Assembly: GCF_902490045.1 (NCBI RefSeq)
Contig: NZ_CABUCJ010000001.1
Coordinates: forward strand, 1 to 59,732
Length of the DNA stretch: 59,732 nucleotides
From: an uncultured Anaerotruncus sp.
Lineage (GTDB): Bacteria > Bacillota > Clostridia > Oscillospirales > Ruminococcaceae
Direction of reading: 5' to 3'
Part shown: piece after piece, positions 2,872-25,921 of the stretch
How the letters are laid out: the number at the start of each line of letters is the position of its first letter
Numbering within the stretch: position 1 is the first letter of the stretch
Notes under the pieces: generated by a model
Database searches by the model: none
What the model saw: the letters and a program-made list of their open reading frames with translations, nothing else
What the model was told of the DNA's origin: nothing
Position numbers and translations under genes: made by a program

Positions 2872-2885
2872 CGGGCCGTACGGAG

Positions 2886-6710: not shown

Positions 6711-6767
6711 CCGGAGGTGCTCCGGTACGGCGCGGGGGACAGGTCATGTTCAGAGGGGGAGAGTCGT

Positions 6768-7370: not shown

Positions 7371-7447
7371 ACGAGAACATATCCTGTATCAAATACCGTC
7401 CGCCAGTCGATGAGATGACCGGGGTATCATCATAAGGAGGAAAAGCA

Positions 7448-8845: not shown

Positions 8846-8848
8846 AAT

Positions 8849-8887
8849 ACGGAAAGGAGGCGGCGCGGAACGCCGCCTCCTTTCCGT
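8849..8887 (+). terminator. Intrinsic terminator after tnaA
   Basis: 17-bp perfect inverted repeat ACGGAAAGGAGGCGGCG / CGCCGCCTCCTTTCCGT. Confidence 0.8.
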
Positions 8888-8920
8888 CCGTTTCCGCATA
8901 CAGAATTGGTGCCATTCCTG

Positions 8921-9034
8921 TGCATGGGCTTTGGATGCAACGCGGCGGGCATCACGGGCTGCCGAATCATCGATTCGCCGCGGGAACGCCTGATCGCGAT
9001 CATCACGAACAATTTTGTTCCCTGCAACGGGCGA
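8921..9034 (+). pseudogene. feoB: Internal 38-codon fragment of a split feoB-like gene (gate region)
   Basis: [38 protein letters not shown]; continues in frame as FPTLIAII at 25150. Confidence 0.9.
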
Positions 9035-9059
9035 TTGCCCCCTCCCGGGAGATGGAAAC
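9034..9059 (+). repeat. Left attachment site (core ATT plus arm CCCCTCCCGGGAGATGGAAAC)
   Basis: Arm 9039-9059 matches the reverse complement of 25127-25147 at 18/21 positions. Confidence 0.85.
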
Positions 9060-9342
9060 AATCGCCGGTTTCAGGGCTGATATGGAGCTTTTTGACCTGG
9101 ATTTGGAGGTGGAAACGACAGTTTTGTTGCCCTGTGGTAAGAGACCCTGGGGTCACTTACCAGACATCCAAAAGGCTTTCAGTCAGACGCTACAGGATTA
9201 CCGCAGCAAAAGGCATCTTACTCAAAAACAGCTCGCTGTTCAGCTTGGCGTGGCGGAAACGACACTTCGCCTCTGGGAACAGGGAAAGACGATTCCACAT
9301 CCCTCCACCCGGTTGAGGGCGGAAAAGATGTTGAAAGAGTAA
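9052..9342 (+). CDS. XRE-family HTH protein (start 9052 or 9082)
   Basis: [27 protein letters not shown]ro/CI-type HTH. Confidence 0.7.
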
Positions 9343-9384
9343 AAGGCAGGCCGCGATTCAAAAACGAACCGCGGCCTGCCTTTT
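9341..9384. terminator. Bidirectional terminator between convergent genes
   Basis: AAAAGGCAGGCCGCG...CGCGGCCTGCCTTTT. Confidence 0.8.
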
Positions 9385-9574
9385 AGAGATTGGATGATAG
9401 AAGTTGTATGATACGTGTCAAAACCTCTGTTTTTTGCATGGGGGACAGCGCGGATTCATTCAACCTCCGCTCAATGAGTTGGAGATGGTACTGATTCGCC
9501 CGCTCCGCGATGGACTTTCCATCCGGGGAGGGAACAAAATGAATCCGTACATGCTGAATCTGGTTTCGCTTCAT
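9383..9574 (-). CDS. Small hypothetical protein (63 aa) downstream of the tyrosine recombinase
   Basis: ATG with GAGGGGG RBS; MKRNQIQHVRIHF...; co-oriented with the integrase. Confidence 0.6.
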   Translation of the reverse strand: MKRNQIQHVRIHFVPSPDGKSIAERANQYHLQLIERRLNESALSPMQKTEVLTRIIQLLSSNL

Positions 9575-9632
9575 TTTTGCCGCCCCCTCGTCACAGGGTA
9601 TGCGGGGAGCGATTTGTCCTATTCCGACGCAC

Positions 9633-10535
9633 TCAATCCCCTTCGCTTCCACCGTTAAATCGGGAGGCCAGATAGATACGCGTGACATCGTCCCTGGTGT
9701 GGCCAAGCAACTTGGACACCTTCTTGCGGGCCTCCAATTCCGTAAAGCCCTGCCGGATAAAACCGTCGTACCATTCCGCCGCGCAGGTATGCCGGAGTCC
9801 GTGAAAAGTCATGGGCCGGGTGGAACCGACTTCCTGCATTTCGGCTTTGTGATAGTTGATGAACGCTTCCAGTCGGTGAATTGCCAGATGAGTCTTGTCG
9901 TCCGGGGCGACAAACAGTTTTTGCCCGCGCGGAGTGACCTTCAGGATGTCTCTCAGCATGATTCGGATGCTGTCGTTGATCGGCACCTCCCGCACGAGCC
10001 CGCCCTTGCCTTTGACGGTGAGCATTCCTACTGTCAGTGCCTTTTCCGCGGCGGCAGTGTCAAGCCGGAAACACTCATGGATACGCAAGGCGGCGTAGCG
10101 CCCCAGGCAGAGGATGGCAATATAATCGTTGTGATCTAACTTGGATGCTCTTGCTAAAAAACGATTAAATTCCGGTGAGCCCCAGGTGCGGTCCACCCCG
10201 CCGAACCGCCGCCGCTTCAAGTCCAATACGGCGTTATTGGGCAGGGTATATTTCGCGCCCGCGATCTGGTCGTGAAAGAACCGGATGGCCGACAGTTCGG
10301 TCTTGATGTAGGCCGCCGATAATCCTTTTTCCGAAAGATGGTCCACATAGGAGAAAAGGTGCTTTGGCGCGATATTTGCCAGCTTTTCCAGCCGGTATTC
10401 CTCCGCGAGATAAGCGAGGAACCGCTTGAACGCCTCGGCATACCGGGCCTTGGTCTTGTAGCTCCCCTGCCGGTTATGGGAAGAGAGTTTATCAAATTGG
10501 GACAGCAGATTGAGATAGATGCCTTTATTCAACAT
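9633..10535 (-). CDS. Tyrosine recombinase/integrase with SAM-like N-terminal domain
   Basis: Catalytic residues intact: ALRIHE (R), KGKGG (K), HGLRH, LLGH, TRIY (Y); GGAGG RBS. Confidence 0.9.
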   Translation of the reverse strand: MLNKGIYLNLLSQFDKLSSHNRQGSYKTKARYAEAFKRFLAYLAEEYRLEKLANIAPKHLFSYVDHLSEKGLSAAYIKTELSAIRFFHDQIAGAKYTLPNNAVLDLKRRRFGGVDRTWGSPEFNRFLARASKLDHNDYIAILCLGRYAALRIHECFRLDTAAAEKALTVGMLTVKGKGGLVREVPINDSIRIMLRDILKVTPRGQKLFVAPDDKTHLAIHRLEAFINYHKAEMQEVGSTRPMTFHGLRHTCAAEWYDGFIRQGFTELEARKKVSKLLGHTRDDVTRIYLASRFNGGSEGD

Positions 10536-11120
10536 GATAATCCTCCAAATGTTCTGCCTTGGAGGCGCAGTTCGCCCACTGGAAAATGGCGGCGTTTCGA
10601 CCGTTTTTCTGTTTCAGGGAGAGAAAAGAACCCCGCCGGGGATGGTCAGCGAAAGAAGTAAAAACCGCATTCCAACCGGCTTTTGGGAGACTTCCGGCTC
10701 GATGCTTTCCTCCGAAGTCCTCCGGGATTCCAAACCGTCTCGTTTAGAAATAGATTCGTGTTCAGCAATGGATGCCGCGAAAGCCTTTTATAAAAGGCCG
10801 GAGCATACGAACTCCACGGCGAACGCGATGCCGCCATAGCGGTGCAGGCTTGCGCTCACAGGCGTTCTTCTGCCGCCGGATTGCGAAAGCAGAACACCCA
10901 CCGGCGACAGGTGTGTGGGTGTTCTGCTGCGGGAGCCTGCCAAAGCTCTCTGGACGAATTCCGTGCCTGGATCCTCCGCATCGTCCCGTGCGGGGAGGCC
11001 TGTCTGCTGTCCCGTTAGAATGCTTATCCTTTTCTCCCTCTACCCGGGCCTTTGGCCTCGGCCGGGGGACACGCGCGCAACGCGCGCGGGAGATTGTGCC
11101 AAAAGTTGCTGGCTAAACGC

Positions 11121-11161
11121 AAAAAGGCCCTGATCAATGAGTTACACACTGATCAGGGCCT
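11121..11161 (-). terminator. Intrinsic terminator inside the leader
   Basis: AGGCCCTGATCA/TGATCAGGGCCT stem followed by a U-tract on the minus strand. Confidence 0.65.
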
Positions 11162-11208
11162 GAGCTGTATTGTGGTCTGAAAACCGCAAATTCAATTGAA
11201 AACCTGTG

Positions 11209-11249
11209 AAAAAGGCACAGTACGCCCACTTGTATGGGGTACTGCGCCT
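11209..11249 (-). terminator. Promoter-proximal intrinsic terminator/attenuator
   Basis: Minus strand AGGCGCAGTAC...GTACTGTGCCT then TTTT. Confidence 0.65.
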
Positions 11250-11327
11250 AGCAACAATCCATTAACGGCGGCACCGAAGCCGCCAACTGAGGAATCCACC
11301 GAAGGATTCAAAAAACACTGTAAACAC

Positions 11328-11356
11328 AGTATATGGCATAATAATGGCATTGTCAA
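11328..11356 (-). promoter_or_regulatory. Sigma-A type promoter
   Basis: Minus strand TTGACA-N17-TATACT with an AT-rich upstream tract. Confidence 0.75.
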
Positions 11357-11567
11357 GTGATAAAATCAATATATATAAAAAAATATAATAATTTAAAAAA
11401 AATACACAATATATAGTATGCAGAAATGCAATACTTGCTTCGGCAACTAATAGCCACTGGTGGTTAACCCGCAGGCCGTCAGTATGTGACGGAAAACTCT
11501 TTCTTCATCTCACGGATTTAAGTTTTTGACGAGTCCAACGACTGCTCCGCTGAGTTGCCGTAAGCCG

Positions 11568-12260
11568 TCAGCTTTCCATAACCTCAAGCACACCTGAAAA
11601 ATCTTCCGTCTGCCCGGAAATCACTTCAAGCCCGGTTTCCACAATACCCAAAGGCACCAGTTCGTCTGAGTGCCTGAAATCGCCGTAGAAGATCGTAAAA
11701 TTCCCCCACGGGCGATAGATCACCATTTCTCCGGTAATCGGATCGTATCCGGGCTGCTCCTCGCCGATGGAGAGCGGCTCATCTGGGGTTTGCGCGGGCT
11801 TTTCAATCCCTGACAAGTCATAGAATGACAGGTCAGTCATGGGAAGGCGCTCCAGAAAGGCGTCGACCGCAGTGTTGTCATACATTGCAATGACGACCTC
11901 CTCTGTGCCGTTTACAGTCAGCTTCAACTTGACGCCGCTGAATGTGGGGGCGCTTCCGTCAGGGTATGTCCCCGTGCTGGTTACTTGAGTTGCTTGATCA
12001 GGAGCGGAAGTCTGGCTGGGGGCATCTTCATCCGGTACTTCAGAGGAGATGTCCAAAGGCACTTTTCCATCATCTTCTGCTGCTTCGGAAGAGATGTCCA
12101 AAAGCACATCCCCATCATCTTCTGCTGCTTCGGAAGATAGGACTGAGGAGGTATTGGCTCCATCATTCCCGACAGGCTTTGAATTGTTGCTGGAAGAACA
12201 CGCTGTGAAAACAATGGAGACGCAAACCAGCATTGTGATCAGCAATAAATATTTTTTCAT
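11568..12260 (-). CDS. Lipoprotein with C-terminal cyclophilin-like fold
   Basis: Lipobox FTAC; C-terminal FLERLP..EK..GEMVIYRPWGNFTIFYGDF..LVPLG. Confidence 0.75.
   Translation of the reverse strand: MKKYLLLITMLVCVSIVFTACSSSNNSKPVGNDGANTSSVLSSEAAEDDGDVLLDISSEAAEDDGKVPLDISSEVPDEDAPSQTSAPDQATQVTSTGTYPDGSAPTFSGVKLKLTVNGTEEVVIAMYDNTAVDAFLERLPMTDLSFYDLSGIEKPAQTPDEPLSIGEEQPGYDPITGEMVIYRPWGNFTIFYGDFRHSDELVPLGIVETGLEVISGQTEDFSGVLEVMES
12046..12135. repeat. 45-bp in-frame tandem repeat (SSEAAEDDGxVxLDI)
   Basis: GAGATGTCCAAA at 12046 and 12091; period 45. Confidence 0.85.
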
Positions 12261-12369
12261 TCTCAAAATCCTTTCGCTTCATTAAGTTAAATAGATAGCT
12301 GGGTCCGGTCTGCTCCGGTCTGCTTATGAAGATTTTCGCAAGCGACGACACGGCTTACAAAACTTGATT

Positions 12370-12728
12370 TCAAGAGACTAATTCCAACTCACCAAGCCAC
12401 TTTTCTACTTCCGGCTGTGCTGCCGCGACTTCTCTCATGGGTATATGCAGCCCATTTTTTATGACATTCGCATCGGGCAGCAATTCCTGAATGGATGCGA
12501 TCGTGTTGGAAAACCCGCTGCTGGCGCTTGTCGCAAAGGGGATGACCGTCTTGCCGGAAAAGTCATATGCCTCCAAAAAACTGTATACGGGCATCGGCAT
12601 ATCGTACCACCAGTTGGGAAATCCAAAGATTGTGCTATGGAAGAGTCCTCCATTCGAGTCTGACCGGAACAAGCTGCCGTCAGTAAAAGCGTCAGGCATG
12701 ACAAACAAGCGAAAATCGTTCTTTTCAT
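12370..12728 (-). pseudogene. Internally deleted flavodoxin lipoprotein
   Basis: Signal/lipobox MKRTIFACL..TAAC is out of frame with the flavodoxin C-half GFPNWWYDMPMP..DFSGKTVIPF; N-half missing. Confidence 0.7.
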
Positions 12729-12757
12729 ACGTTGATCCTTTCAGATGCGCAAAAGCA

Positions 12758-13612
12758 TTAAGATAAATGGAGTTCAGCAAGCCACGCTTGAACGGCGGGC
12801 CGCGCGGAGTCAACCTCTGGACGGTACACGCCGATGACGTTGTCGATCACGGTGCAGTCCTCCGGCAGCGCCGCGGTAATATCCTGCACACTGCTGGCAA
12901 GCCCTCCCGTGCCGTGGGTGCAAAACAGGACGATGGTTTTCCCAGAAAGATCGTTCTCTTCGATAAAGCTCAAAATCGCCATAGGACAGCTGTACCACCA
13001 GTTGGGATAGCCGATGAACACGGTGTCGTAGTCGTCGATGTTCTCCACGCGGTGCGTAAGTTTTGGCCGGGCGTTTGCCGCCTTTTCATCGGCGGCCCGG
13101 TCCAGACATTCGTCGTAATCGCTGGAGTATGGCTCGGTCACGACAATCGAAAATAGATCCCCGCCGATTTCCTGCTGAATCCAGCCCGCCAGTTTTGCGG
13201 CGTTGCCGGGGAGCAGAACACTTGCGGACGCAGTGGCGTCCACATCGATTGAAGCAGGGTCCTCCACTTGGGTATTTTCCGCCCAGGTAAAGTAGGCGAT
13301 CAGCGTCTTGCCGTCGGGCTGCTCCTGCTCAGTGGGCAAATCCGGGATGGAGCTTTCAGAAGGAGCTGGGGCAGCTTCTGCGGAAGGAGTGGAAGCTGCG
13401 CTTTCGGACTGCTGGCTGGCGGCGTCCGACGGCGCGGAAACGGCGCTTTGCGGGGATGAAGACACGACCGCTGCTTCCGATGATGATTGGGGCGCGGCGC
13501 TCTCCGACCCTGAGGATTGCGCTGGAATCGACGGTTTAGACGTCTGATTTCCGCACGCGGTAAGACAAATCAGCGTGCTCAGGCAAATCAGAATTGCGGC
13601 AGCTTTTTTCAT
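12758..13612 (-). CDS. Flavodoxin lipoprotein with Ser/Ala/Pro-rich linker
   Basis: Lipobox LTAC; LIAYFTW, GYPNWW, FCTHGTGG. Confidence 0.85.
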   Translation of the reverse strand: MKKAAAILICLSTLICLTACGNQTSKPSIPAQSSGSESAAPQSSSEAAVVSSSPQSAVSAPSDAASQQSESAASTPSAEAAPAPSESSIPDLPTEQEQPDGKTLIAYFTWAENTQVEDPASIDVDATASASVLLPGNAAKLAGWIQQEIGGDLFSIVVTEPYSSDYDECLDRAADEKAANARPKLTHRVENIDDYDTVFIGYPNWWYSCPMAILSFIEENDLSGKTIVLFCTHGTGGLASSVQDITAALPEDCTVIDNVIGVYRPEVDSARPAVQAWLAELHLS

Positions 13613-14303
13613 GTGGCACCTCCTTGGGATGATTGGCCAGCTTTTTGCAGGCCTTGGAAAGTACGTGTCCGAGAAAGACGAAAAGCCCCATGATCGAGAG
13701 GTAATCGAGATAAAACAGGAGCTTCGGTTCCTCAAAGTCCATGAACACAAATTCGTTTTGCAGCAGCATATAAGACGGCAAATCCCGCTGGAAGAGCGCA
13801 TACAGGCCGTAGACCGCGATGACCAAACCGGCAAAAAAAAGAGAGGATGATGCCGCCTTCGACGGCTTCGCCTGGCCGAAGCGTTTTTTCGCCATGCCGA
13901 GGAACATACCCCAGTGCAGCCCCAGATGCAGGCTCAACAACGCATAGCCCCAATAGGCGCCAAGGATGTGGAGCCGCCGCGCCAGCATCATGCCTCCGTC
14001 GATGGGGAGGAACGCGAACACATGGCGGCTCATGACGATGCCGCTATACATTTGCGTCAGCATGGCGGCCAGCACAAGCAGATTGACGCTGACTGTCAGG
14101 ACACGCATCGGCGTGTAGCGGCCCTTAAAGAGGTTTCTATACCAACCGAAGTTCAGAAGGTTGTGCGCGAAAAACAGCGCGAACATACCCGCGCCTACCC
14201 ATTCGTGCGCCGCCTGCCCGAAGAATTGATAGCCCATCAGAACGAGCAGCGCCAGCGTCATGGCGGCGTCTAGGACCATCTTTACGATAGCTTTTGTTTT
14301 CAA
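13536..14303 (-). CDS. DUF4405-type cytochrome b-like membrane protein
   Basis: Several TM helices with His motifs HEWVG, FAHN, LHILG, LHLGLHW. Confidence 0.7.
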   Translation of the reverse strand: MKTKAIVKMVLDAAMTLALLVLMGYQFFGQAAHEWVGAGMFALFFAHNLLNFGWYRNLFKGRYTPMRVLTVSVNLLVLAAMLTQMYSGIVMSRHVFAFLPIDGGMMLARRLHILGAYWGYALLSLHLGLHWGMFLGMAKKRFGQAKPSKAASSSLFFAGLVIAVYGLYALFQRDLPSYMLLQNEFVFMDFEEPKLLFYLDYLSIMGLFVFLGHVLSKACKKLANHPKEVPHEKSCRNSDLPEHADLSYRVRKSDV

Positions 14304-14306
14304 CAG

Positions 14307-14846
14307 TCATCCACCGACCTTTCTGCCCAGCGCATAGGCTTTATCAGGAAATTCGGTTGCTTTTGTCATGGACACTGTGCCGCAACCGACGCCCAGGATC
14401 ATGCCCTGGTCCTGAAAATGCAGATAGCGGCAGAGCGTCTGATAATGGCTTTGCAGCTCCCGCATCGTCCAGTCATTGCTGTCCCATGCGGCGGCAATGA
14501 GCACGGTTTTCAGTTTTTTTGCGGTCAGCTCGCCGTTAAAGCTGTAAAAGCGGTCGATCACCATCTTGAGCTGTGCAGAGATTCCAAAATAGTAAAGCGG
14601 GGTGACGAACACGGCCAGATCACTGGCGAGAAGCTGTTCCCGCACCCGCGCCATATCGTCTTTTTGGCAGCAGGGGCCAGACATACCGCAGGCCTCACAG
14701 CCGAGGCAGGGATGTAGATCGGCGTGGCCCGCATCGAATACGATCACGGTGTTGCCGGCCTCCTTTGCGCCGCGGATAAACTGTTCCGCCAACAAATTGG
14801 AAGAGCCGTGCTTATGGGGGCTGCTTTCAATGACGAAGATGTTCAT
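14307..14846 (-). CDS. Iron-sulfur flavoprotein / NADPH-dependent FMN reductase family
   Basis: SSPHKHGSS, PCLGCEAC..C, TPLYYF, LKMVIDR. Confidence 0.85.
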   Translation of the reverse strand: MNIFVIESSPHKHGSSNLLAEQFIRGAKEAGNTVIVFDAGHADLHPCLGCEACGMSGPCCQKDDMARVREQLLASDLAVFVTPLYYFGISAQLKMVIDRFYSFNGELTAKKLKTVLIAAAWDSNDWTMRELQSHYQTLCRYLHFQDQGMILGVGCGTVSMTKATEFPDKAYALGRKVGG

Positions 14847-14859
14847 GCCGCTCCTCCCT

Positions 14860-15270
14860 CTAGTTCAGTTGGTCGTATGTTTCGTCGTCCACTGCCTCGC
14901 ACCATTCATTGGACGTGTTCTCGCCGAGGACCTCGATAGCGAGGTGGGCAAACCAGCTGTCCCTCGCCGCGCCGTGCCAGTGCTTGACCTCCGGTGGGAT
15001 GACCACCGAGTCGCCGGGGCGCAGCTCCCGCGCGGGCTTGCCCCACTCCTGATACCATCCCCGGCCCGACATACAGAGCAGGATCTGACCACCACCCTTT
15101 GTGGCGTGGTGGATATGCCAGTTGTTGCGGCAGGCCGGCTCAAAGGTGACGTTGAAAATCCCCATCCCTTCGGTGGTTACAGGATTCAAATAGCTCTGCC
15201 CGATGAAATACTGCGCGAAGGCGTCGTTGGGCCGTCCCAGCCCGAAGAGGCCAGCTTGTTCGTTGTTCAT
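14860..15270 (-). CDS. Cupin domain protein
   Basis: NVTFEPACRNNWHIH..GGQIL..KHWHGA. Confidence 0.9.
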   Translation of the reverse strand: MNNEQAGLFGLGRPNDAFAQYFIGQSYLNPVTTEGMGIFNVTFEPACRNNWHIHHATKGGGQILLCMSGRGWYQEWGKPARELRPGDSVVIPPEVKHWHGAARDSWFAHLAIEVLGENTSNEWCEAVDDETYDQLN

Positions 15271-15326
15271 GGTAAAGTCCCTCCAATTCGTATTTATGTT
15301 TCCTTGAACTGTCCGATAAACAGGAA

Positions 15327-15503
15327 TCATTCAACTTCTCTCTTGAGTACGACCATCGTATTTTTCCACTGAACAAATTCCCATCCTTCTAAACCGAGTT
15401 TAGTGAGTTCGCCCTCGATTTCGTGGGCTATTTCGGCATATTTTTTATCATTCAAGGCCGCGGGAATTCCCTTTGAAATTACCTTATACTCAAATTTTTT
15501 CAT
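15327..15503 (-). CDS. DUF4177-like small protein
   Basis: MKKFEYKV..LGLEGWEFV..LKRE. Confidence 0.7.
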   Translation of the reverse strand: MKKFEYKVISKGIPAALNDKKYAEIAHEIEGELTKLGLEGWEFVQWKNTMVVLKREVE

Positions 15504-15513
15504 TACATTATCC

Positions 15514-15996
15514 TCACAGCCCAAGGCTTTTGATCCATGCGTCCAGTGATTCTTTGGAAGGACTGCCGTTCAGCAGCTTCCCGGTGCGAACCTCCCCGGC
15601 GCAGCAGGCGCGCAGGATGCCGGCCGTCTTTCCCATCCCGCTGCCGCCGGAGGTAGCGAACGGGATCACCGTCTTGCCCGCGAAATCGTAGCTCTCCAAA
15701 AAGGCGTTGATGATTGTGGGGGCCACATACCACCAGATGGGGAAGCCCACAAAAACCGTGTCGTAATCCTCCATGTGTTCCACCGACCCGGAGATCTCCG
15801 GGCGGGAGGCCGGGTCGTTCATCTCGACACTGCTGCGGCTCTTTTTATTCGTCCAGTCCAGGTCGGCAGCGGTGTAGGGGACCTGCGGTTTGATTTCATA
15901 GAGATCCGCGCCCGCCGCCTCCGCCAGCTTCTGCGCGGCTCGTTTTGTCACGCCGCTGCAGGAAAAGTACGCCACCAATATCTTTTTACCATTCAT
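15514..15996 (-). CDS. Flavodoxin (cytoplasmic)
   Basis: [24 protein letters not shown]. Confidence 0.9.
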
Positions 15997-16011
15997 CTCT
16001 AAAACCTCCGC

Positions 16012-16338
16012 TCATTCTTCGCCGTGCACTTCTTTTGCCATTTTGAACGCCGCCCACGCATTGGGCCATCCCGCATAAAAAGCCGCATGGGTCAGGATTT
16101 CCGCCATCTCCCCGGCGGTGACGCCCTGCTTTTTGGCATTGCTGATGTGGTATTGGAGGGAACTGTCCAGAATTCCCTTGCTCATCAGCGCGGTGACGGT
16201 GACAATGCAGCGATCCCGCAGGGAAAACTGCTCCTCCCTCGCCCAAATTTCTCCGAACAGCACGTCATCGTTAAGCTCCGCGAACTTGGGAGCGAATGTC
16301 CCAAGAGCGTCGTGTCCGGCGGTCTGTTTTTCAATCAT
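16012..16338 (-). CDS. Carboxymuconolactone decarboxylase family protein
   Basis: FAPKFAELNDDVLFGEIW, HAAFYAGWP. Confidence 0.88.
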   Translation of the reverse strand: MIEKQTAGHDALGTFAPKFAELNDDVLFGEIWAREEQFSLRDRCIVTVTALMSKGILDSSLQYHISNAKKQGVTAGEMAEILTHAAFYAGWPNAWAAFKMAKEVHGEE

Positions 16339-16414
16339 GAGTTCTTCCAACCTTTCTTTGATTCGGATAAGCGGCAGGCGGGGCGGCCATTTAGACCGCC
16401 CCGCCTGCCTGCGC

Positions 16415-17362: not shown

Positions 17363-17395
17363 TTGAAAGTCCCCTTTCTCCGAATTTCAAGAAAA

Positions 17396-18901
17396 TCACT
17401 TTACTGCAATGTTGTTTGTTTCCAGCCATGCACTCACATCGCCCGCGAGGCTGGAGCCGCCGGAATAGTGGATATCCAGCGCCTCGCCCATTGCGGCATC
17501 GGGGGCCAGTTTGGCGATTGCCGTCAGGCTCTGCCCGAAGCGGCCGCCGCCATGGCTGCAAAACGGGATAATCGTTTTGCCGGAGAAGTCATATTCCTCC
17601 AGGAAGGAAGCAATGGGCATAGGGATTGACGCCCACCAGTTGGGGTAGCCGATCAGGATGGTGTCGTACTGCTCCATGTTCTCCACATGGGCGGCAAGCT
17701 CCGGACGGGCCTGTGCGTTTTGATCCCGCTGCGCCTCCTCCAGGACGGTATTGTAATCGTCCGAATAGGGGGTTGCCGGCGTGATCTCAAAAAGGTTCGC
17801 GCCCGTCTGGCGCTGGATCTCCTCCGCGACGCCCTGGGTGTTGCCGCCCCAGGAGAAGTAAGCAATCAGGATGTTGCCGCCGTTCGAGTTGCTTTGGCTT
17901 TGCGCGCCGAAGGTGCTGACACTGCCCATCCCCGCCGACGCGTTGCGCGCAAGACGGATACCGAGGTTAAAGCTGCCCTTGTTCTGCTCCATCGTGGCGC
18001 GGTAGGCCGAGCGCATATTTTTTGCGAAGTCGTTCCAGCCGCCACCCCGGTACACCCGCAGGACGCCGGTGTCCGGCCCGGTGGGGTCGGTTTGCGCCGC
18101 GGCATCATAGTCCCCATAGAAATCCCAGACCCACTCGCTCACGTTGCCGTGCATATCGTACAGCCCATAGGCGTTGGGCGCGAAGCTGCCGACTGCGACA
18201 GTGGTTTCCCGGTACTGTCCGGGCCGGGTGGAGAGGTTCCCCTGCGAAAAGTAGTTTTCTTCGATCTGGTAGGGATAGTGGCCGTAGTAGTTGACCTCAT
18301 CCGCGCTGGGGGAGTTTTCCGTGTTGAACGGCGTGGTCGTTCCCGCGCGGCAGGCGTACTCCCACTCCGCCTCGGTGGGCAGGCGGTAGCCGTCCGCGGA
18401 GCGGTCCCAGCTTACGCTCTGCCCGTTGATGGTGTAGGCCGGCGTCAGCCCCTCGCTTTCGCTGCGGGCGTTGCAGTAGGCAATCGCATCAAGCCAGGAG
18501 ACATTTTCCACAGGGAGCCGCTCCCCGGAAAAGCTGCTGGGAGTGCTTCCCATAACCGATTCATATTCCGCCTGGGTCAGTTCATAGGCGCTGATATAGA
18601 AATTGCTGACAGTCACGGTGTGCTGGGTTTCGTCGCCGCTGCGCCAAGCCTCGGAATCGGGGCTGCCCATCTGGAAAGTACCGCCTTCAACCAGGACAAA
18701 GGGCTCCGGCACCTGTGCCGGGGCGGCCTCGGAGGGGGTGAACTGGATCACCTCTTGTTCTTGCGACGGGGTGGAGACTGAAGCTGAAGCAGCGCTCCCG
18801 TAATCGGTTTGCGCGGGCGATTTGTTCCCCGCGCAGGCAGACAAAGAGAAGATCAGCAGAATGGAAAGTGCCAGTGTGGTCCATCGCTTCATATACTTCA
18901 C
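17396..18901 (-). CDS. Lipoprotein: FGE/SUMF1-like domain fused to C-terminal flavodoxin
   Basis: Lipobox LSAC; YRLPTEAEWEYAC and NAYGLYDMHGNVSEW, then IAYFSWGGNT and GYPNWW. Confidence 0.85.
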   Translation of the reverse strand: MKYMKRWTTLALSILLIFSLSACAGNKSPAQTDYGSAASASVSTPSQEQEVIQFTPSEAAPAQVPEPFVLVEGGTFQMGSPDSEAWRSGDETQHTVTVSNFYISAYELTQAEYESVMGSTPSSFSGERLPVENVSWLDAIAYCNARSESEGLTPAYTINGQSVSWDRSADGYRLPTEAEWEYACRAGTTTPFNTENSPSADEVNYYGHYPYQIEENYFSQGNLSTRPGQYRETTVAVGSFAPNAYGLYDMHGNVSEWVWDFYGDYDAAAQTDPTGPDTGVLRVYRGGGWNDFAKNMRSAYRATMEQNKGSFNLGIRLARNASAGMGSVSTFGAQSQSNSNGGNILIAYFSWGGNTQGVAEEIQRQTGANLFEITPATPYSDDYNTVLEEAQRDQNAQARPELAAHVENMEQYDTILIGYPNWWASIPMPIASFLEEYDFSGKTIIPFCSHGGGRFGQSLTAIAKLAPDAAMGEALDIHYSGGSSLAGDVSAWLETNNIAVK

Positions 18902-18905
18902 CTGC

Positions 18906-19667
18906 TTACTGCGCCAGGCCGATCTTGGTCAGCCATTCGGTCACGGCGCCGCCGGGATTTTGGGACGCGGAGCTGGAAAGGGAAAGACCGTCCGTAATGG
19001 TTGCGCCCGGCTCCAGACCGGCGATGGTGCGGAGCGTGCCCGAGAAGCCGCTGCCGCCGCTGGACACAAAGGGGGCGATGGTCTTACCGGACAGGTCGTA
19101 GGCATCCAGGAAGCTGTAAAGGATCATCGGCATATCGCCCCACCAGTTGGGGAAGCCCAGATAGACGACATCGTAGCTGGCGAAGTTCTCGATGCCGCCG
19201 GTGATCTCCGGGCGGGCGTTTTCGCTCTGCTCGTTCTGCGCCTCGTCGAGGACGGTGTTGTAGTCGGTGGAATAGGGGATGACGGGTACCAGCTCGAACG
19301 TGTCCGCGCCGGTCTGGCTGGCGATTTCGCCCGCGATGGTTTTGGTGTTGCCCGACCAGGAGAAATAGACCACCAGCGCCTTTGCGCCGGTTTCCTCCGG
19401 CTGGGCGGGAGCCTCTTCAGAGAGGGATTCTGGCGCGGATGCCGGTTCAGAAGACATTTCGGCGGATGGCGCCGGTGCAGCTGTCGGTTCAGAGAATGCC
19501 TCGGAGGGGGCTTCGGATGTGGATTCCACAGGCGCGGACACCGCCGAAGAAGAAACAGCGGCGGCGGAAGCCGGTGCGGAACTTGATGGGGTGGAAGCGG
19601 AACCGCCGCACGCCGCCAGCGAGAGCGGCATTGTAAAGGCTAAGAGGAATGCAAATATTTTTTTCAT
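18906..19667 (-). CDS. Flavodoxin lipoprotein with Ser/Ala/Pro/Glu-rich linker
   Basis: Lipobox LAAC; VVYFSWSGNT, GFPNWWG. Confidence 0.85.
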   Translation of the reverse strand: MKKIFAFLLAFTMPLSLAACGGSASTPSSSAPASAAAVSSSAVSAPVESTSEAPSEAFSEPTAAPAPSAEMSSEPASAPESLSEEAPAQPEETGAKALVVYFSWSGNTKTIAGEIASQTGADTFELVPVIPYSTDYNTVLDEAQNEQSENARPEITGGIENFASYDVVYLGFPNWWGDMPMILYSFLDAYDLSGKTIAPFVSSGGSGFSGTLRTIAGLEPGATITDGLSLSSSASQNPGGAVTEWLTKIGLAQ

Positions 19668-19737
19668 GTTGATTGACTCCTTCCTAATTGTTTTGAACGA
19701 TCCGGGCAATCCCGGTTGTTAATCTGACGCCGGTTTT

Positions 19738-19947
19738 TCAAATGCCGGACTTTATGAACATACTTTCCGGGGGGATCTGCTCCATTGACTGTTTCCAGTC
19801 CTCCTTCGGCACATCCTGAACAGAAACCGACACGACCTTTTCTTCAATTTTGAGCTCGTCACAAATCAGCCGCTGGACCTTGACCGCCAGCGCCTTTTTG
19901 GTTTCATCGTCTCTCCCTGGGAACATGGTGATTGCAATATGCGGCAT
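19738..19947 (-). CDS. 4-oxalocrotonate tautomerase family protein
   Basis: N-terminal Pro (MPHIAITMFPGR); GGAGG RBS. Confidence 0.85.
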   Translation of the reverse strand: MPHIAITMFPGRDDETKKALAVKVQRLICDELKIEEKVVSVSVQDVPKEDWKQSMEQIPPESMFIKSGI

Positions 19948-19972
19948 AAAATCTCCTCCTTTAAGACTGCGT

Positions 19973-20521
19973 TCATGGTTTTCCAAGCGACATACACGCC
20001 GCGATGGTCTCGCCGGTCTTGAGGTAGGTATAACCCGGCATCTCAAACAATACTGGCTTGAATTTGCCGAAATCTGGTTTTGTACCGTCCCTGGTCAAAA
20101 TGGACTCCTCCGCAAAGGTGTGGACGATTTTGAGCATGAAGTTTTCAAACGCGGCGGTTTCGTACACATCTTCCACGGTGCATTCCATGGAAATCTTTGC
20201 TTCGTCAATCATAGGGGTGCCAGCTTCTCCTGTCGTGTAGGAGAACACCTTAGATTTATCTGTCTTTCCGCCGCTGACACAGCCTACATAGTCGGCCTTT
20301 TGCAGCCAGCCTTCATCCACCACATTGATGGACAGCGCCCGGTTTTCCCGAATCCCTTGATTGATGTAGTGCGCTTTGGCAAGGCTTACCATCACCAGGT
20401 CATGGGAAGGGATACCGGTATGCGCCGCCAGCGTCCAGGTAGGCTTGCCTTGCACTATCGCGCCTACGACGACCACCGGCACAGGGTAAAGGGCGCCGAT
20501 ACTGCCCAAATCTTTTTTCAT
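19973..20521 (-). CDS. Flavin reductase (flavoredoxin) family protein
   Basis: LYPVPVVVVG, ADYVGCVSG. Confidence 0.85.
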   Translation of the reverse strand: MKKDLGSIGALYPVPVVVVGAIVQGKPTWTLAAHTGIPSHDLVMVSLAKAHYINQGIRENRALSINVVDEGWLQKADYVGCVSGGKTDKSKVFSYTTGEAGTPMIDEAKISMECTVEDVYETAAFENFMLKIVHTFAEESILTRDGTKPDFGKFKPVLFEMPGYTYLKTGETIAACMSLGKP

Positions 20522-20526
20522 TGCGA

Positions 20527-20877
20527 TCAAATCCCTTTCTTTTTCATTTTAAACCGAAGATAGTCCAGCCGATCCAGTTGCCTTTCCCGGAAATGGATTT
20601 CGTCCAGCGTGTCGCTGCGCTTGTCGGTTAGCATCCGCAGCCGCTCCTGTTCGGTGGAGTCTCCCGCCAGCATCAGGCGCATATAGGTTTCGATTTCCTT
20701 GTTGCTGAAACCGATATCGTGCAGGGTCATGATCATGCTGAGGCGTTCGATATCCCTGTCGTCATACTGCCATGCGCCCATGACTTTTTTGACCTCACCG
20801 CAGAGTCCCCAGCTTTCATATTCGTCCAGTACCTCTACAGGGATGTTGTAATGCTCACTTGCTTCCGTCTTTGTCAT
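20527..20877 (-). CDS. MerR-family regulator
   Basis: YDDRDIERLSMIMTLHDIGFS HTH/coiled coil. Confidence 0.8.
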   Translation of the reverse strand: MTKTEASEHYNIPVEVLDEYESWGLCGEVKKVMGAWQYDDRDIERLSMIMTLHDIGFSNKEIETYMRLMLAGDSTEQERLRMLTDKRSDTLDEIHFRERQLDRLDYLRFKMKKKGI

Positions 20878-20959
20878 TTTTTGTTTGACTCCTCTCCACG
20901 CGGAATAAAAAATAAAGGCGCTCCCTCTCGGGTACGCCTTTAGTATAAAACTCGCCTAT

Positions 20960-20999
20960 TGATATGTCTAATACTTATATCGTATTCATTGAAATGCCT
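20960..20999. promoter_or_regulatory. Putative LysR operator/promoter, copy 1
   Basis: 31/40 identical to 23082-23121. Confidence 0.55.
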
Positions 21000-21865
21000 G
21001 TTACGCATTTCTGGGAGTATTCAAGAAATGCGGCTGTGGTGGGAGCGGTCATCTGATCTTTCTTCCACACCAAAACAGAACCGCTCTCCATGGGCGGGGA
21101 AAGTGGAATAAAGTAGGTATCGTCATAACTGCAATCCAACTTGATGCAGACGGCTGCGCCGATTTTGTTGCGCACCAGGATTGCCGCATTGTAAAGCAGG
21201 TTATAGAGGCCCACGATATGCAGATCGTCAAAATCAACCCCAAAGCAGTTGGCGATGAACCCCTGAATCAGATTACCGTTGGGAACCATTAAGGGGACAT
21301 TCAATAGTTCGGATGGGCTGACGGACTGTTTCCCGGCAAGTTCAGAATCCTTGTGAACCAGTACGCCCCAGGTTTCCTTCTGCGGCACCTGCAAGAAAGC
21401 ATATTTTGTCATGTCCACAGGCTCGGGCACAAGCCCCATATCCAGGAGTCCGTTTTCGATGCGCTCCTTGATGCTGTCCGTATTGCTGCTGAAAATGCTC
21501 ATTTGAACAAGAGGGTGCTCTGCTTGAAATCGGGCCAGGAGCTTCGCAAGGAAGTCCACACTTTGCAGCTCGCCGCAGCCAATCGAGATTTCACCCGTCA
21601 GCTCCGCATCCTTCTGCATCAAATCCAGCCTTGTTTTTTCCGCCAGGCTGATCAGCTCCTGCGCCCGCCGCTTTAAGAGCATCCCCTCCTCGGTGAGGAT
21701 GATACTGTGGTTGCTCCGCTGAAACAACTTGACGCCCAGTTCCTCCTCCAGCTGCATGAGCTGGCGGGATAAGGTAGGCTGCGTCACGTGCAAAAGCTGA
21801 GCTGCCTTTGTGATGTTTTCCTCCCGGGCCGCCATCAAAAAATAGTTTAATACACGCAGTTCCAT
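20975..21865 (-). CDS. LysR-family transcriptional regulator
   Basis: MELRVLNYF..ITKAAQLLHVTQPTLSRQ. Confidence 0.95.
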   Translation of the reverse strand: MELRVLNYFLMAAREENITKAAQLLHVTQPTLSRQLMQLEEELGVKLFQRSNHSIILTEEGMLLKRRAQELISLAEKTRLDLMQKDAELTGEISIGCGELQSVDFLAKLLARFQAEHPLVQMSIFSSNTDSIKERIENGLLDMGLVPEPVDMTKYAFLQVPQKETWGVLVHKDSELAGKQSVSPSELLNVPLMVPNGNLIQGFIANCFGVDFDDLHIVGLYNLLYNAAILVRNKIGAAVCIKLDCSYDDTYFIPLSPPMESGSVLVWKKDQMTAPTTAAFLEYSQKCVTGISMNTI

Positions 21866-21976
21866 AGGCTCACCTCTTTGCCCACAGTATAGCACAGGGT
21901 TAACGCATAATCAACATATCTTATGTTAAGAAATGCTATATTCCTATATCTGTTTTTCAAACAGAATAAGAGGGCC

Positions 21977-23014
21977 TCAGAGTGTTTGGTCCCCAATTGA
22001 CCAGGTGGGTGAAGCCTTTAACATTTTTTCATTGTTTTCCGCCATCACGCCCACCAGCTTGTGAAGAATATAGGCTTCCTCCAAATAACAGATTTCTTCT
22101 TCTGACAGGGTAAGCTCCACAGCCTTTGCTGCGCCCTCAATATGATGGAGCTTGGTGGCGCCGACAACTGGAGAATCCACCTTTGTCAACAGCCACGCCA
22201 GAGAGATTTCCGTCATGGAAATACCCTTTTGCTTGGCCAGCTCCGCCACACGTTCGATGATCACACCGTCCTGTTGCGCTGTGGCGTCATACTTGAATCT
22301 CGCGTAGCTGTCCTCCCGCAGACGTTTCGATGTCTCACCAGGGTGCCTGGAAAGCCGTCCTCCGGCCAGCGCGCTGTAGGGCGTCAACGCAATGTTTTCT
22401 TCTCGACAGAGGGGAACCATTTCCCGTTCCTCCTCGCGGAAAAGCAGGTTATAATGTCCTTGAATGGAAACAAATTTCGCAAAGCCTTCTCTTTCAGCCA
22501 GGGCATTCGCCTTGGCAAGCTGCCACGCAAAGCAGTTGGAGATTCCGATGTAATGGGCCTTTCCCGCCTTTACGATGCGGTTGAGTCCGTCCATGATCTC
22601 GTAAAGCGGCGTTGCAAAATCCCACATATGGTAGATATAGAGATCCACATAGTCCATGCCGAGATTTTGCAGGCTTTTATCGATCATCCGCTGGATGTGC
22701 TGCTGCCCGCTGATCCCGTTTTCAAGATCCGTGGCGGTGCGGGGCAGGAACTTGGTGGCCACGACCACCTCGTTGCGCTTTGCATAATCCCGCAGCGCCC
22801 GGCCCACATACTGCTCGCTGGTGCCGCTCTGGTAGGCGATGGCCGTGTCGTAAAAATTCACGCCCAGCTCCAAGCCGCGCCGGATGATCTCTCTGGAATG
22901 CGCTTCATCCAGCGTCCAAGAGTGCTGGCCCTTCTGCGCGTCGCCAAAGCCCATGCAGCCCATGCAGATTCGCGAGACTCGCAAATCAGAAGCACCCAGT
23001 TTTGTGTACTCCAC
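21977..23014 (-). CDS. Aldo/keto reductase
   Basis: VSRICMGCMGFG, DTAIAY, YVDLYIYH, IGISN. Confidence 0.92.
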   Translation of the reverse strand: MEYTKLGASDLRVSRICMGCMGFGDAQKGQHSWTLDEAHSREIIRRGLELGVNFYDTAIAYQSGTSEQYVGRALRDYAKRNEVVVATKFLPRTATDLENGISGQQHIQRMIDKSLQNLGMDYVDLYIYHMWDFATPLYEIMDGLNRIVKAGKAHYIGISNCFAWQLAKANALAEREGFAKFVSIQGHYNLLFREEEREMVPLCREENIALTPYSALAGGRLSRHPGETSKRLREDSYARFKYDATAQQDGVIIERVAELAKQKGISMTEISLAWLLTKVDSPVVGATKLHHIEGAAKAVELTLSEEEICYLEEAYILHKLVGVMAENNEKMLKASPTWSIGDQTL

Positions 23015-23081
23015 TTTTCATCCGCCTTTCATACATAAACGAAGAACTCCTCAGGTTACTTTCATTATAGGGCCTTGTTAC

Positions 23082-23121
23082 TGATATAGCTAATACTTAA
23101 AATGTATTGTCAGAAATGCCT
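23082..23121. promoter_or_regulatory. Putative LysR operator/promoter, copy 2
   Basis: TGATAT..CTAATACTTA..GTATT..GAAATGCCT shared with 20960-20999. Confidence 0.55.
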
Positions 23122-23249
23122 TTTGCAAATTTATTTCTCTATATTTTATGATGTTCTAATTATATAAGCGTTGGAAGTCTTTGATTTTTCCAATTGCTTT
23201 GATATAATTAGTGTAAGGAATACATTACTCGGCGAAAGGGGCGTCATAG

Positions 23250-23438
23250 ATGGAGCTTGCAAAGATTACCGCCAAAGGGCAAATTACGATACCGATTGGT
23301 ATCCGCCGAAAATTGGGCGTCAAAGAAGGAGACAAGATCCTTTTTATTGAAGAAAATGGAAAAATCTATCTTTCAAATGCATCCAAGATACCCTTGGACG
23401 CATTGGTGAAAGCGACCTTTGTAGAAGAAGCGGAATAA
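23250..23438 (+). CDS. AbrB/MazE/SpoVT-family DNA-binding protein
   Basis: AKITAKGQITIP..RRKLGVKEGD; preceded by TTGATT-N16-TATAAT (23181-23208). Confidence 0.88.
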   Translation: MELAKITAKGQITIPIGIRRKLGVKEGDKILFIEENGKIYLSNASKIPLDALVKATFVEEAE

Positions 23439-23473
23439 GTTGACTGTTCTATTTTTCAAAGGAGGTGAAAGTT

Positions 23474-25090
23474 ATGCGGATTTACATCTACAGCCGCAAG
23501 TCGGTCTGGACCGGCAAGGGCGAGTCCATCGAAAATCAGGTGGAGATGTGTCGGCAGTACATCACAAACCGTATTGATGGTGGCAGGGCCGCCGAGGTCA
23601 CCGTCTACGAGGACGAGGGCTTTTCCGGCAAAAATCTCGACCGGCCGCAGTTCCAAAGGATGCTGGCCGACTCGAAGAAGCAGAAACCGGATTACATCGT
23701 CTGCTACCGGCTCGATCGCATAAGCCGCAGTGTGGGGGACTTTGCACCGTTGGTGGAGGATTTCATATCGCGGGACATCGGATTCATCTGCATCAAGGAG
23801 CAATTCGACACCTCCACGCCCATGGGTAAGGCGATGATGTACATCGCGAGCGTGTTCGCCCAGCTCGAGAGGGAGACGATTGCCGAGCGGGTGCGGGACA
23901 ATATGCTGATGCTGGCCCGCACCGGCCGCTGGCTGGGCGGAGCTCCGCCTACCGGCTACCAAAGCGAGAAAGTTGAAGAGTGTGTCGTCGATGGAAAAGT
24001 AAAGACCTCGTTCAAGCTGAAGTCCAATCCCGCTGAGATCGGCACGGTTAAGCTCCTGTTCCAGAAGTATTTGGAGTTGCGTTCGCTGAACGGCGTTTCC
24101 AAGTATCTGATTCATGCCGGCATCTGTAACCGTAATGGAGACCCCTATTCGCTGCCGGGCATCAAGGATATTTTACGCAACCCAGTCTACTGCATCGCCG
24201 ATCGTGCCGCGCGGGACTACTTCGTCAGCTGCGGGTCGGATGTGTGTTTCCCGCTTGAGGGATGCTCGGACAAATATGGGCTTCTTTCCTACAACAAGCG
24301 AAATTATACCCGAAAAGGCCACTCCCGGCTGGATAAATCCCAGTGGATCATCGCGGTCGGCAAGCATCGGGGGATCGTCAGCGGCGCAGATTGGGTGCGG
24401 GTGCAGCAGCTTTTGGAGGAGAGGTCGGAGAAGAACATCGCGAAATCCCCACTGAGCTACAACGACTATTCGCTGCTTTCGGGACAGATTTTCTGTTCCA
24501 AGTGCGGGGCGCGGATGTTTGCCAAACGCCGCAGCAACAGCGAAACGCTGTTCGATTACATCTGTGGAAATAAGCTGCGGGATGGAGGGCTCTGCGACTG
24601 CCAGAACCTGAGCGGGCAGCAGGCGGATCACAAGGTATCTGAGTATCTGATGGACTACGTCCATGAGGACAACGGGATCTATCAGCTTTTGGACGCGCTG
24701 AAAAAGAAGATTGAGGACCAGATACCAGCAGACCCGGCGGGGCATTTCGGTGCCCAGATGGAAAAGGCACAGCGGGAGATGGACGGCCTGGTGGCAACGC
24801 TGGCAGCATCCGGGGGGAACGAATCAGTGGTGCGGCATGTGAGCGCCCGGATGGAGGAATTGGACGAGGAACTGAAGCGGCTGACGGCTGCCAAGGCGCA
24901 GGCAAAACAGGCTCATTTGGGCGCGAAGATGGGAGAAGCGCAGATTGCGGCGCTCTCCTGGGCACTCTCGGGCTTCAAGGAACACTTCGACGACATGACC
25001 ATCCACGAGAAGCGCGACTTCGTCCGGCTGTTCGTGAAGAAGCTGGAGTGGGACGGCAAGGACCTCCATATTTTTGTGTACAAGGGATAG
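23474..25090 (+). CDS. Large serine recombinase (resolvase + recombinase + Zn ribbon/coiled coil)
   Basis: YSRKS catalytic Ser, DEGFSGKN, YRLDRISR, FAQLERETIAERV, CSKCG; AGGAGGTG RBS. Confidence 0.95.
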   Translation: MRIYIYSRKSVWTGKGESIENQVEMCRQYITNRIDGGRAAEVTVYEDEGFSGKNLDRPQFQRMLADSKKQKPDYIVCYRLDRISRSVGDFAPLVEDFISRDIGFICIKEQFDTSTPMGKAMMYIASVFAQLERETIAERVRDNMLMLARTGRWLGGAPPTGYQSEKVEECVVDGKVKTSFKLKSNPAEIGTVKLLFQKYLELRSLNGVSKYLIHAGICNRNGDPYSLPGIKDILRNPVYCIADRAARDYFVSCGSDVCFPLEGCSDKYGLLSYNKRNYTRKGHSRLDKSQWIIAVGKHRGIVSGADWVRVQQLLEERSEKNIAKSPLSYNDYSLLSGQIFCSKCGARMFAKRRSNSETLFDYICGNKLRDGGLCDCQNLSGQQADHKVSEYLMDYVHEDNGIYQLLDALKKKIEDQIPADPAGHFGAQMEKAQREMDGLVATLAASGGNESVVRHVSARMEELDEELKRLTAAKAQAKQAHLGAKMGEAQIAALSWALSGFKEHFDDMTIHEKRDFVRLFVKKLEWDGKDLHIFVYKG

Positions 25091-25126
25091 GAATTTATCA
25101 GCCGCTTGTCTCTCGTTGCTCCGGAG

Positions 25127-25151
25127 GTTTCCAGCCTCCGGGAGGGGTATT
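25127..25151 (+). repeat. Right attachment site (arm GTTTCCAGCCTCCGGGAGGGG plus core ATT)
   Basis: Inverted partner of 9039-9059; the feoB frame resumes at 25150. Confidence 0.85.
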
Positions 25152-25884
25152 CCCGACCCTTATTGCAATTATCACGATGTTTTTTGTCGGGGGCGCGGTG
25201 GGCGCGTTTTCCTCCGTCGTTTCGACCCTGCTGCTCACTGCTGTCATCGTGCTCGGCGTGCTGATGACCTTCGCGGTGTCGGCGCTCCTCTCCTGCACGA
25301 TCCTCAAGGGGATGCCGTCCTCCTTTACCCTTGAGCTGCCGCCCTACCGCCGTCCGCAGATCGGCAGGGTGATCGTCCGTTCGATCTTTGACCGGACCCT
25401 CTTCGTACTTGGGCGCGCGATCGTCGTCGCGGCGCCGGCCGGGCTCGTCATCTGGGTGATGGCCAACGTCACCGTCGGGGGTATGAGTTTGCTGGCCCAC
25501 TGTGCGGGCTTCCTCGATCCCTTCGCACGGCTGCTCGGGCTGGACGGCGTGATCCTCATGGCGTTCATCCTCGGGTTCCCGGCCAACGAGATCGTCGTGC
25601 CGATCATCATCATGGCCTATCTGGCGACGGGGAGCATCCTCGACTTCGACAATCTCGCGCAGCTCAAGACGCTGCTTGTCGACAATGGCTGGACCTGGCT
25701 GACGGCGGTGTGCACGATGCTCTTTTCCTTGATGCACTGGCCCTGCTCGACGACCTGCCTGACCATACGCAAGGAGACGCAGAGCTGGAAGTGGACGGCG
25801 ATTTCCTTCCTCGTGCCGACGGTGATCGGCATGGTCGTCTGCTTCCTCGTCGCGGGCGCGGCGCGGCTGTTCGGGCTGGCATAA
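25150..25884 (+). pseudogene. feoB: C-terminal segment of the split feoB-like gene (no stops; restorable by excision)
   Basis: FTLELPPYRRP, GFPANEIVVP, HWPCSTT FeoB C-terminal motifs. Confidence 0.9.
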
Positions 25885-25885
25885 G

Positions 25886-25921
25886 AAAAAAGCGTCCCGC
25901 TTTTAAGCGGGACGCTTTTTT
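25886..25921. terminator. Bidirectional terminator
   Basis: AAAAAAGCGTCCCGC..GCGGGACGCTTTTTT. Confidence 0.85.

Follow-up and report, generated by a model that had tools for sequence, protein, structure and literature searches.

The closest described counterpart of the locus considered here is the gin element, which interrupts gerE of Bacillus cereus ATCC 10987 and is described as encoding a large serine recombinase (LSR), GirC, and a recombination directionality factor (RDF), GirX (PMC5595907). The skin element in sigK and the SPbeta element in spsM provide broader comparison systems (PMC5499854). Here we analyze a stretch of 59,732 nucleotides from an uncultured bovine-gut Anaerotruncus sp. 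(contig NZ_CABUCJ010000001.1 of assembly GCF_902490045.1; referred to below as the window), in which one gene for the iron transporter FeoB is interrupted by a recombinase-bearing island, element 1, and again, 107–110 bp upstream, by an island termed element 2, which appears to continue on a further contig, C36. We consider it likely that element 1 is a mobile cargo island of a feoB-specific LSR family (the LSR1 family, named after its recombinase) stacked beside an unrelated island.

Two other groups of LSR-moved elements are relevant to this locus. In staphylococcal cassette chromosome elements (SCC/SCCmec), the Ccr LSRs move cargo islands that have no transfer or replication genes of their own to rlmH, where they insert at the 3′ end and the gene is kept. 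The clostridial elements of the Tn4451/Tn5397 type are moved by the LSRs TnpX and TndX, which use loosely defined, GA-centred targets and are not known to use an RDF.

In terms of architecture, element 1 resembles gin, skin, and SPbeta in that a coding gene is split by an element whose precise excision at a short core would be in frame, and it further resembles gin in being a non-prophage, LSR-run element with a small partner protein that is a candidate RDF and with minimal family members that are nearly empty. It differs from all three in its target, which is an iron transporter gene with paralogues rather than a sporulation gene, in the horizontal spread and large, variable cargo of the LSR1 family, and in the presence of two unrelated elements in one gene. 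The likeness to SCC lies in cargo-only islands that LSRs move to one conserved gene and that are variable in content and stacked at one locus; the feoB islands, however, split their target in mid-gene, and none of the tests run identified LSR1 as an orthologue of Ccr. With Tn4451 and Tn5397 they share the status of clostridial non-phage elements moved by LSRs, whereas the LSR1 and LSR2 lineages use fixed sites in one gene.

The picture of the locus is corrected from one clean switch to one feoAB operon with two stacked, unrelated recombinase islands. The comparison also documents a large family of feoB-specific islands, apparently without a name so far, that carry metabolic and defence genes from one gut clostridium to another and encode no phage or conjugation genes themselves, and it provides two orthogonal sets of recombinases and attachment (att) sites ~110 bp apart, with a candidate excision factor for one of them.

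feoB Lies in Three Pieces

The closest relative, G016, carries an intact feoB of 718 codons in which the insertion site of element 1 is empty at exactly the same codon. Three pieces of the present gene tile G016 FeoB residues 5–438, 440–474, and 475–718 without a stop. The two downstream pieces lie in the window on either side of element 1 (Table 1). The 5′ part, 434 codons long, is found on C36, where a FeoA-domain gene precedes it; it runs to ...LTMCM, after which the sequence is unrelated, and it has no FeoB_C domain. The left flank of feoB in G016 corresponds to C36:1914-13279 (91% identity) and the right flank to the window from 25150 onward (93–97%), and the 107-bp gap between these two flank matches is the middle feoB piece. 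As read from the assembled contigs, feoB is thus in three pieces, split by two stacked, unrelated LSR islands. The ratio of nonsynonymous to synonymous substitution rates (dN/dS) relative to G016 is ~0.09–0.11 for the two longer pieces, and the 35-codon middle piece shows no amino acid change. A FeoB_N search of the genome revealed three complete feoB genes elsewhere (on C7, C30, and C135).

The initial annotation had proposed that excision of element 1 restores the feoB frame; the gene itself is not restored, as the left-hand piece in the window comprises only 35 codons and the 434-codon 5′ part lies on C36, where the recombinase gene of element 2 follows it. Since feoB is also split by element 2, excision of element 1 alone cannot rebuild the gene; the rebuilding of a complete gene that characterizes elements of the skin/SPbeta/gin type was not found here, because feoB would remain split.

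The middle piece is preceded in the window by a 9-bp junction core, by the Beta_elim_lyase gene of element 2, and by a hairpin resembling a terminator. The same 9-mer recurs at the left junction of element 2 (C36 13271-13279), and intact relatives read ...ACCATGTGCATGGG... at the position of this core. On C36, the 5′ feoB piece is followed by a recombinase of 545 aa, LSR2, with Resolvase, Recombinase, Zn ribbon, and DUF4368 domains; the last of these we take to be typical of TnpX-like enzymes. LSR1 and LSR2 are 21% identical. Neither window positions 1–8918 nor C36:13280-21179 has an orthologue in G016, G005, G001, or G004, in which the former stretch finds only paralogue-level matches of 64–91% identity over 33–409 bp. 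Element 2 has a minimum length of 16.8 kb and an unassembled interior; where C36 ends and contig C1 starts, no overlap of ≥19 bp was found, either between the two or with the ends of other contigs. The only arms found for it are an outer inverted motif matching at 8/9 positions across a 36-bp spacer, longer gapless arms being spoiled by an indel. The linkage of the parts within the window was independently confirmed in public metagenome run X1, in which one contig bridges 8000–15133 and so links the end of element 2, the middle feoB piece, and element 1.

Junctions and att Sites of Element 1

Element 1 is bounded by two copies of ATT, 16,115 bp apart, and comprises positions 9037–25148 plus one ATT copy, with the junction letters and cores that had been read in the initial annotation. 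Joining TGC AAC GGG CGA to TTC CCG ACC yields a single frame that is open up to the stop codon at 25882–25884, again as annotated. The junction of the circular form, rebuilt by joining the element ends by script, places the two 21-nt arms (Table 1) around a TATTGC spacer; the arms pair at 18 of 21 positions, as had been noted, and among 2000 random 83-mers drawn from the window only 2 reach 18 matches. Beyond the core, the left and right junctions (attL and attR) are unalike.

The earlier assignment of an LSR-type attP with a 2-bp TT crossover gains support from the spacing of the arm motifs and from the empty sites of relatives, which fix the ends exactly. In the P arms, as seen in element 1 and in the consensus of 53 loci, GTT[G/T]CC starts 23 nt before the TT, whereas in empty sites GTTCCC starts 18 nt before it. 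This difference corresponds to the 5-bp offset expected of an LSR attP versus attB, a figure that reportedly stems from work on LI integrase. The second DNA-binding domain (DBD2) of LSRs is described as being placed differently on attP and attB (PMC12286644). The outer motifs, assigned to DBD2, are expected farther from the centre in attP than in attB, and the spacing seen here follows this rule. At the core, G016 reads GTT and the present strain ATT, with TT alone common to both. The motif spacing is thus consistent with attP-type LSR geometry, and the TT dinucleotide is probably the crossover.

Occupied and Empty Sites in Relatives

Comparison of 20 orthologous feoB loci (L013–L032, own genome included) revealed islands at three positions within the gene. 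The site of element 1 (site 1) is occupied in 5 of the 20, namely in the present genome and in G004, G001, G011, and G020; the upstream site (site 2) is occupied in four (G012, G026, G029, and G025); and a third site, ~55 codons upstream of site 2, is occupied in one (G014). Ten loci are thus split, each at one of these three sites. In the other ten, feoB is intact and continuous over the site 1 codon, and four more are continuous at this codon but split at site 2. The site 1 islands of G001 and G004 are 13.3 and 18.2 kb long, respectively; they have nearly no cargo in common with element 1, and their LSRs are 70% (G001) and 63–65% (G004) identical to LSR1. With its ends fixed by the empty sites of relatives, element 1 agrees with the initial description of a non-prophage, non-conjugative LSR element with a defined att pair.

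The site 2 island of G012 (L045, G012:C4:711000-720000) is only ~6 kb long and has a 465-aa LSR that shares ~25% identity with each of LSR1 and LSR2, so that site 2 is used by more than a single lineage. At the third site (L031, G014:C237, ~1-1230), the LSR reads toward the junction and is 23% identical to LSR1.

LSR1 and a Candidate Excision Factor

LSR1 consists of a Resolvase domain (residues 6–156), a Recombinase domain (residues 189–320; the first DNA-binding domain, DBD1), and a Zn_ribbon_recom domain (residues 337–395; DBD2). Alignment with 25 homologues spans the whole of LSR1, and the serine of its YSRKS motif, S13, is invariant in all 26 sequences, in agreement with the initial view of an intact recombinase. 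The best match in a phage collection, the integrase of a Terrisporobacter phage, is 38% identical. Matches in the PDB are confined to the catalytic domain, with a fragment of TnpX among the weak ones.

Besides the LSR, the only open reading frame (ORF) that recurs in both the G001 and G004 islands is that of a small protein, which in element 1 has 63 aa. An iterative search, which covered ~3 kb upstream of each LSR, recovered homologues of this protein in 15 other distinct loci of the LSR1 family, two of which are the minimal elements L088 and L076. The protein has no match in Pfam or PHROGs, and in the protein Atlas it matches only clusters named "hypothetical protein" (scores ≤0.84). In element 1, 14 kb separate the partner gene from the LSR gene, whereas the two are adjacent in G001 and G004; in L088, the small gene sits at the end opposite the LSR.

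A complex of the 63-aa protein with LSR1 was modelled from two alignments, A1 and A2, and scored 0.68, compared with 0.00 for the best of three controls; among 80 solved complexes 58 attain this mark, as do 2 of 110 mismatched pairs. Agreement between runs is at least 84% of contacts, and the partner has a predicted local distance difference test (pLDDT) value of at least 78. The modelled contacts fall on LSR1 residues 382–420 and 484–541, which are taken to be the DBD2/coiled-coil junction and a C-terminal strand. Verified RDFs are likewise predicted to bind at the DBD2/coiled-coil junction (PMC12286644). As structures of the SPbeta integrase with its RDF are in the PDB, a memory effect is possible in this model. 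The model supports the notion that the 63-aa protein binds LSR1 and makes it a candidate RDF.

A feoB-Specific LSR Family in Clostridia

A scan of genome contigs yielded 197 relatives of LSR1, of which 80, with 46–65% identity, were kept; these come from Oscillospiraceae, Lachnospiraceae, and other Clostridia. In 53 of the 80 loci, a feoB 3′ piece that aligns from its residue 1 begins 36–238 bp after the LSR stop codon, and in 5 the 3′ piece aligns from a later residue. In another 6, a feoB 5′ piece lies downstream of the LSR in inverted (opposite) orientation. The queries used found no feoB piece in the remaining 16, 7 of which have <1 kb of flank. A feoB piece thus adjoins the LSR in 64 of 73 assessable loci.

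Pairs of LSRs that are 98–99% identical reside within feoB pieces that are only 57–67% identical (e.g., L051, L053, L054, and L059), and LSR identity exceeds feoB identity by at least 15 points in 99 of 1326 pairs. Such near-identical LSRs in diverged feoB genes indicate recent horizontal transfer between genera; the vertical retention that marks elements of the skin/SPbeta/gin type is not seen in this family.

The smallest members show how little an island of this kind may carry. L088 (positions 1980–4655), with ~2.7 kb, has a 143-aa ORF in addition to the LSR and the small partner gene, and L076, with ~4.4 kb, contains the partner gene and the LSR together with an RloB/AAA_21 pair (865–2819) as its sole cargo; this pair of an RloB-like protein and an AAA_21 ATPase looks like an anti-phage defence module. 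Judged by gene content, the invariable parts of the family are an LSR at one end and, where visible, a partner of ~65 aa, and the cargo varies from redox and detoxification genes through RloB/AAA_21 to almost nothing.

Association with feoB is not confined to LSR1. The five nearest relatives of LSR2 (46–53% identical) all adjoin feoB pieces at site 2, and the other 24 loci with LSR2 relatives, at ≤41% identity, do not. One of the five, the feoB-splitting element L132 (~1407-4071), is ~2.7 kb long and contains little besides its LSR. A literature search for feoB as a recombinase target, which did not cover the supplementary tables of published LSR catalogues, found nothing relevant, and the LSR1 family, a widespread feoB-specific family of Clostridia, is apparently unnamed.

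Element 1 in Public Sequencing Runs

Of the words sampled from the left junction stretch, at least 88% occur in each of eight bovine-gut runs. Contigs (Logan) of four metagenome runs, X1, X4, X9, and X10, were compared with window positions 8000–26500, the whole of which is covered without differences by contigs of X1. In X4, one contig skips from 9033 to 25150 with a G between, at a depth of 30.7 versus ~9–12 for the island; the same run also contains a contig ~94% alike over the feoB 3′ piece, compared on window positions 25441–26500. We rejected this joint as an excision product and assign it to the GTT-type empty site of a co-resident, more abundant close relative. Many short skip joints inside the cargo, with sides of 20–38 letters, were likewise rejected as paralogues of other organisms.

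Proposed Origin and Mobility of the Islands

The reading that we favour, of element 1 as a mobile island of a feoB-specific family, builds on the junctions, the empty sites, the target specificity across the family, and its horizontal spread. Element 1 would have been inserted by LSR-mediated recombination of attP with attB at the TT within codons R474/F475 of one feoB paralogue. feoB may serve as a landing pad by virtue of a highly conserved sequence, and its loss would be tolerated through the three other intact feoB genes. Element 1 is probably excisable, with excision predicted to depend on the RDF, and its transfer between cells might occur by hitch-hiking. The second island next door would be moved by the TnpX-like LSR2, whose nearest relatives also target feoB.

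Several observations weigh against this reading. Nine of the 73 assessable LSR1-family loci have no feoB piece by the queries used. Neither an oriT nor a relaxase that could account for the movement of a cargo-only island from cell to cell was found, although no search aimed at either was made. Contigs of the four runs, which drop rare forms, contain no circle junction or ATT-type empty site of the present strain. The candidate RDF is assigned from the complex model and from co-occurrence, and the unity of element 2 is suggested by its common 9-bp core, the weak 8/9 outer inverted motif, and synteny, around an unassembled interior. Moreover, none of the feoB pieces, in this genome or in the relatives examined, contains a stop, which is compatible, too, with selection to keep the gene rebuildable.

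Alternatively, the locus could be a regulated gene switch, in which iron limitation, sporulation, or a similar signal triggers excision of one or both islands and feoB is rebuilt in some cells, as in skin, SPbeta, and gin. At both sites, excision at the cores would join the feoB pieces exactly in frame, all three feoB pieces are intact with dN/dS ~0.1 versus G016, and an intact LSR with a modelled RDF-like partner is present. Minimal family members nearly without cargo, such as the ~2.7-kb L088, also resemble gin (PMC5595907). We nevertheless consider a switch improbable: two separate excision events, each by a recombinase unrelated to the other, would be required, the family has been transferred recently between genera rather than retained vertically, and occupancy in the genus is patchy (5 of 20 loci at site 1), with differing cargo and LSRs only 63–70% identical. 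Three other feoB paralogues are intact, and no excision joint of the present strain is found in the contigs of the four runs, which cannot show rare forms. To our knowledge, no link exists between feoB and terminal differentiation. The DNA-level switch proposed in the initial annotation is therefore not supported, given the second island in feoB, the horizontal spread of the LSRs, the three intact paralogues, and the origin of the sole skip joint in a relative.

The intact pieces are also expected soon after insertion, and they could merely reflect a recent event if element 1 were a fixed remnant, an immobile island in a lineage in which feoB is dead. The lack of an excision product in the contigs of the four runs is consistent with this view, as is the extra tyrosine recombinase in element 1 (see below), which suggests internal rearrangement. 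The distance of 14 kb between partner gene and LSR, which are adjacent in G001 and G004, points the same way, except that the small gene of L088 also lies opposite the LSR, so that such a layout appears normal for the family. As LSR1 is full length with every invariant residue present and both arms retain the family motifs at the right spacing, we regard a fixed remnant as unlikely. More speculative, and to be viewed with somewhat greater doubt than either alternative, is the idea that feoB of gut Clostridia is a docking gene for at least three unrelated LSR lineages, with RDF-equipped islands entering and leaving often enough to give mixed feoB-on and feoB-off cells with different cargo. If true, feoB would act as a reversible combinatorial switch that ties iron uptake to accessory metabolism.

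Gene Content of the Two Islands

Table 1. Features of the feoB locus in the window
Feature	Coordinates	Strand	Basis or remark
Element 2, right-hand part	1–8918		Pfam; no orthologous stretch in G016, G005, G001, G004
Beta_elim_lyase gene, element 2	7448–8845		
Terminator-like hairpin, element 2	~8853–8887		
9-bp core TGTGCATGG, right junction of element 2	8919–8927	+	Same 9-mer at left junction on C36
Middle feoB piece, 35 codons	8930–9034	+	100% protein identity to G016 FeoB residues 440–474; weak Gate-domain match
ATT core, left junction (attL) of element 1	9034–9036	+	TT at 9035–9036 is the probable crossover
P′ arm of element 1	9039–9059	+	Inverted partner of 25127–25147; end of GGAAAC motif 23 nt from TT
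Xre-type helix-turn-helix regulator, left end of element 1	9082–9342	+	Pfam HTH_31, HTH_3
63-aa protein, candidate RDF	9383–9574	−	Co-occurrence with LSR1 family; complex model
Tyrosine recombinase (XerC/D-like) within element 1	9633–10535	−	Pfam Phage_integrase and SAM-like domains
Cargo block, redox/detoxification type	11568–23014	−	Pfam
MazE/AbrB-type small DNA-binding protein, immediately upstream of LSR1	23250–23438	+	Lacks conservation in the G001 and G004 elements
LSR1, 541-aa large serine recombinase, reads toward right junction	23465–25090	+	Pfam; homologue alignment
P arm of element 1	25127–25147	+	GTTTCC motif starts 23 nt before TT
ATT core, right junction (attR) of element 1	25149–25151	+	
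3′ feoB piece, 244 codons, FeoB_C and Gate domains	25150–25884	+	Corresponds to G016 FeoB residues 475–718, 95.9% identity

The cargo block of element 1 encodes two aldo/keto reductases, several flavodoxins, an FMN reductase, a flavin reductase, and an FGE-sulfatase-flavodoxin fusion, together with CMD, cupin, tautomerase, and DUF4405 proteins, a cyclophilin-like protein, and LysR and MerR regulators. Among 25 ORFs of the element scanned with Pfam, eight of them also with PHROGs, none matched phage structural or conjugation families (capsid, tail, terminase, relaxase, coupling protein, or type IV secretion), and five had no match at all. The element also supplies no replacement feoB end, and on both counts its content bears out the initial annotation.

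The tyrosine recombinase of element 1 has no homologue in the 80 loci of the LSR1 family and may mark a nested or fused element. Its gene is situated directly upstream of the gene for the 63-aa partner, within an island otherwise marked by a serine recombinase.

The part of element 2 that lies in the window encodes a DAO oxidoreductase, the beta and alpha subunits of an electron transfer flavoprotein (ETF), subunits of a molybdopterin hydroxylase including its FAD subunit, a UbiX-type flavoprotein, and the Beta_elim_lyase. On C36, the left part (13280–21179) carries MarR, an AstE/AspA-like protein, an SSF symporter, and UbiD. The cargo of element 2 is of an aromatic-compound type.

Downstream of feoB, a 2.3-kb stretch of low GC content (30852–33172; 0.42 versus ~0.6), absent from the otherwise collinear G016, holds two ORFs without a family and a TetR-like regulator (32463–32996).

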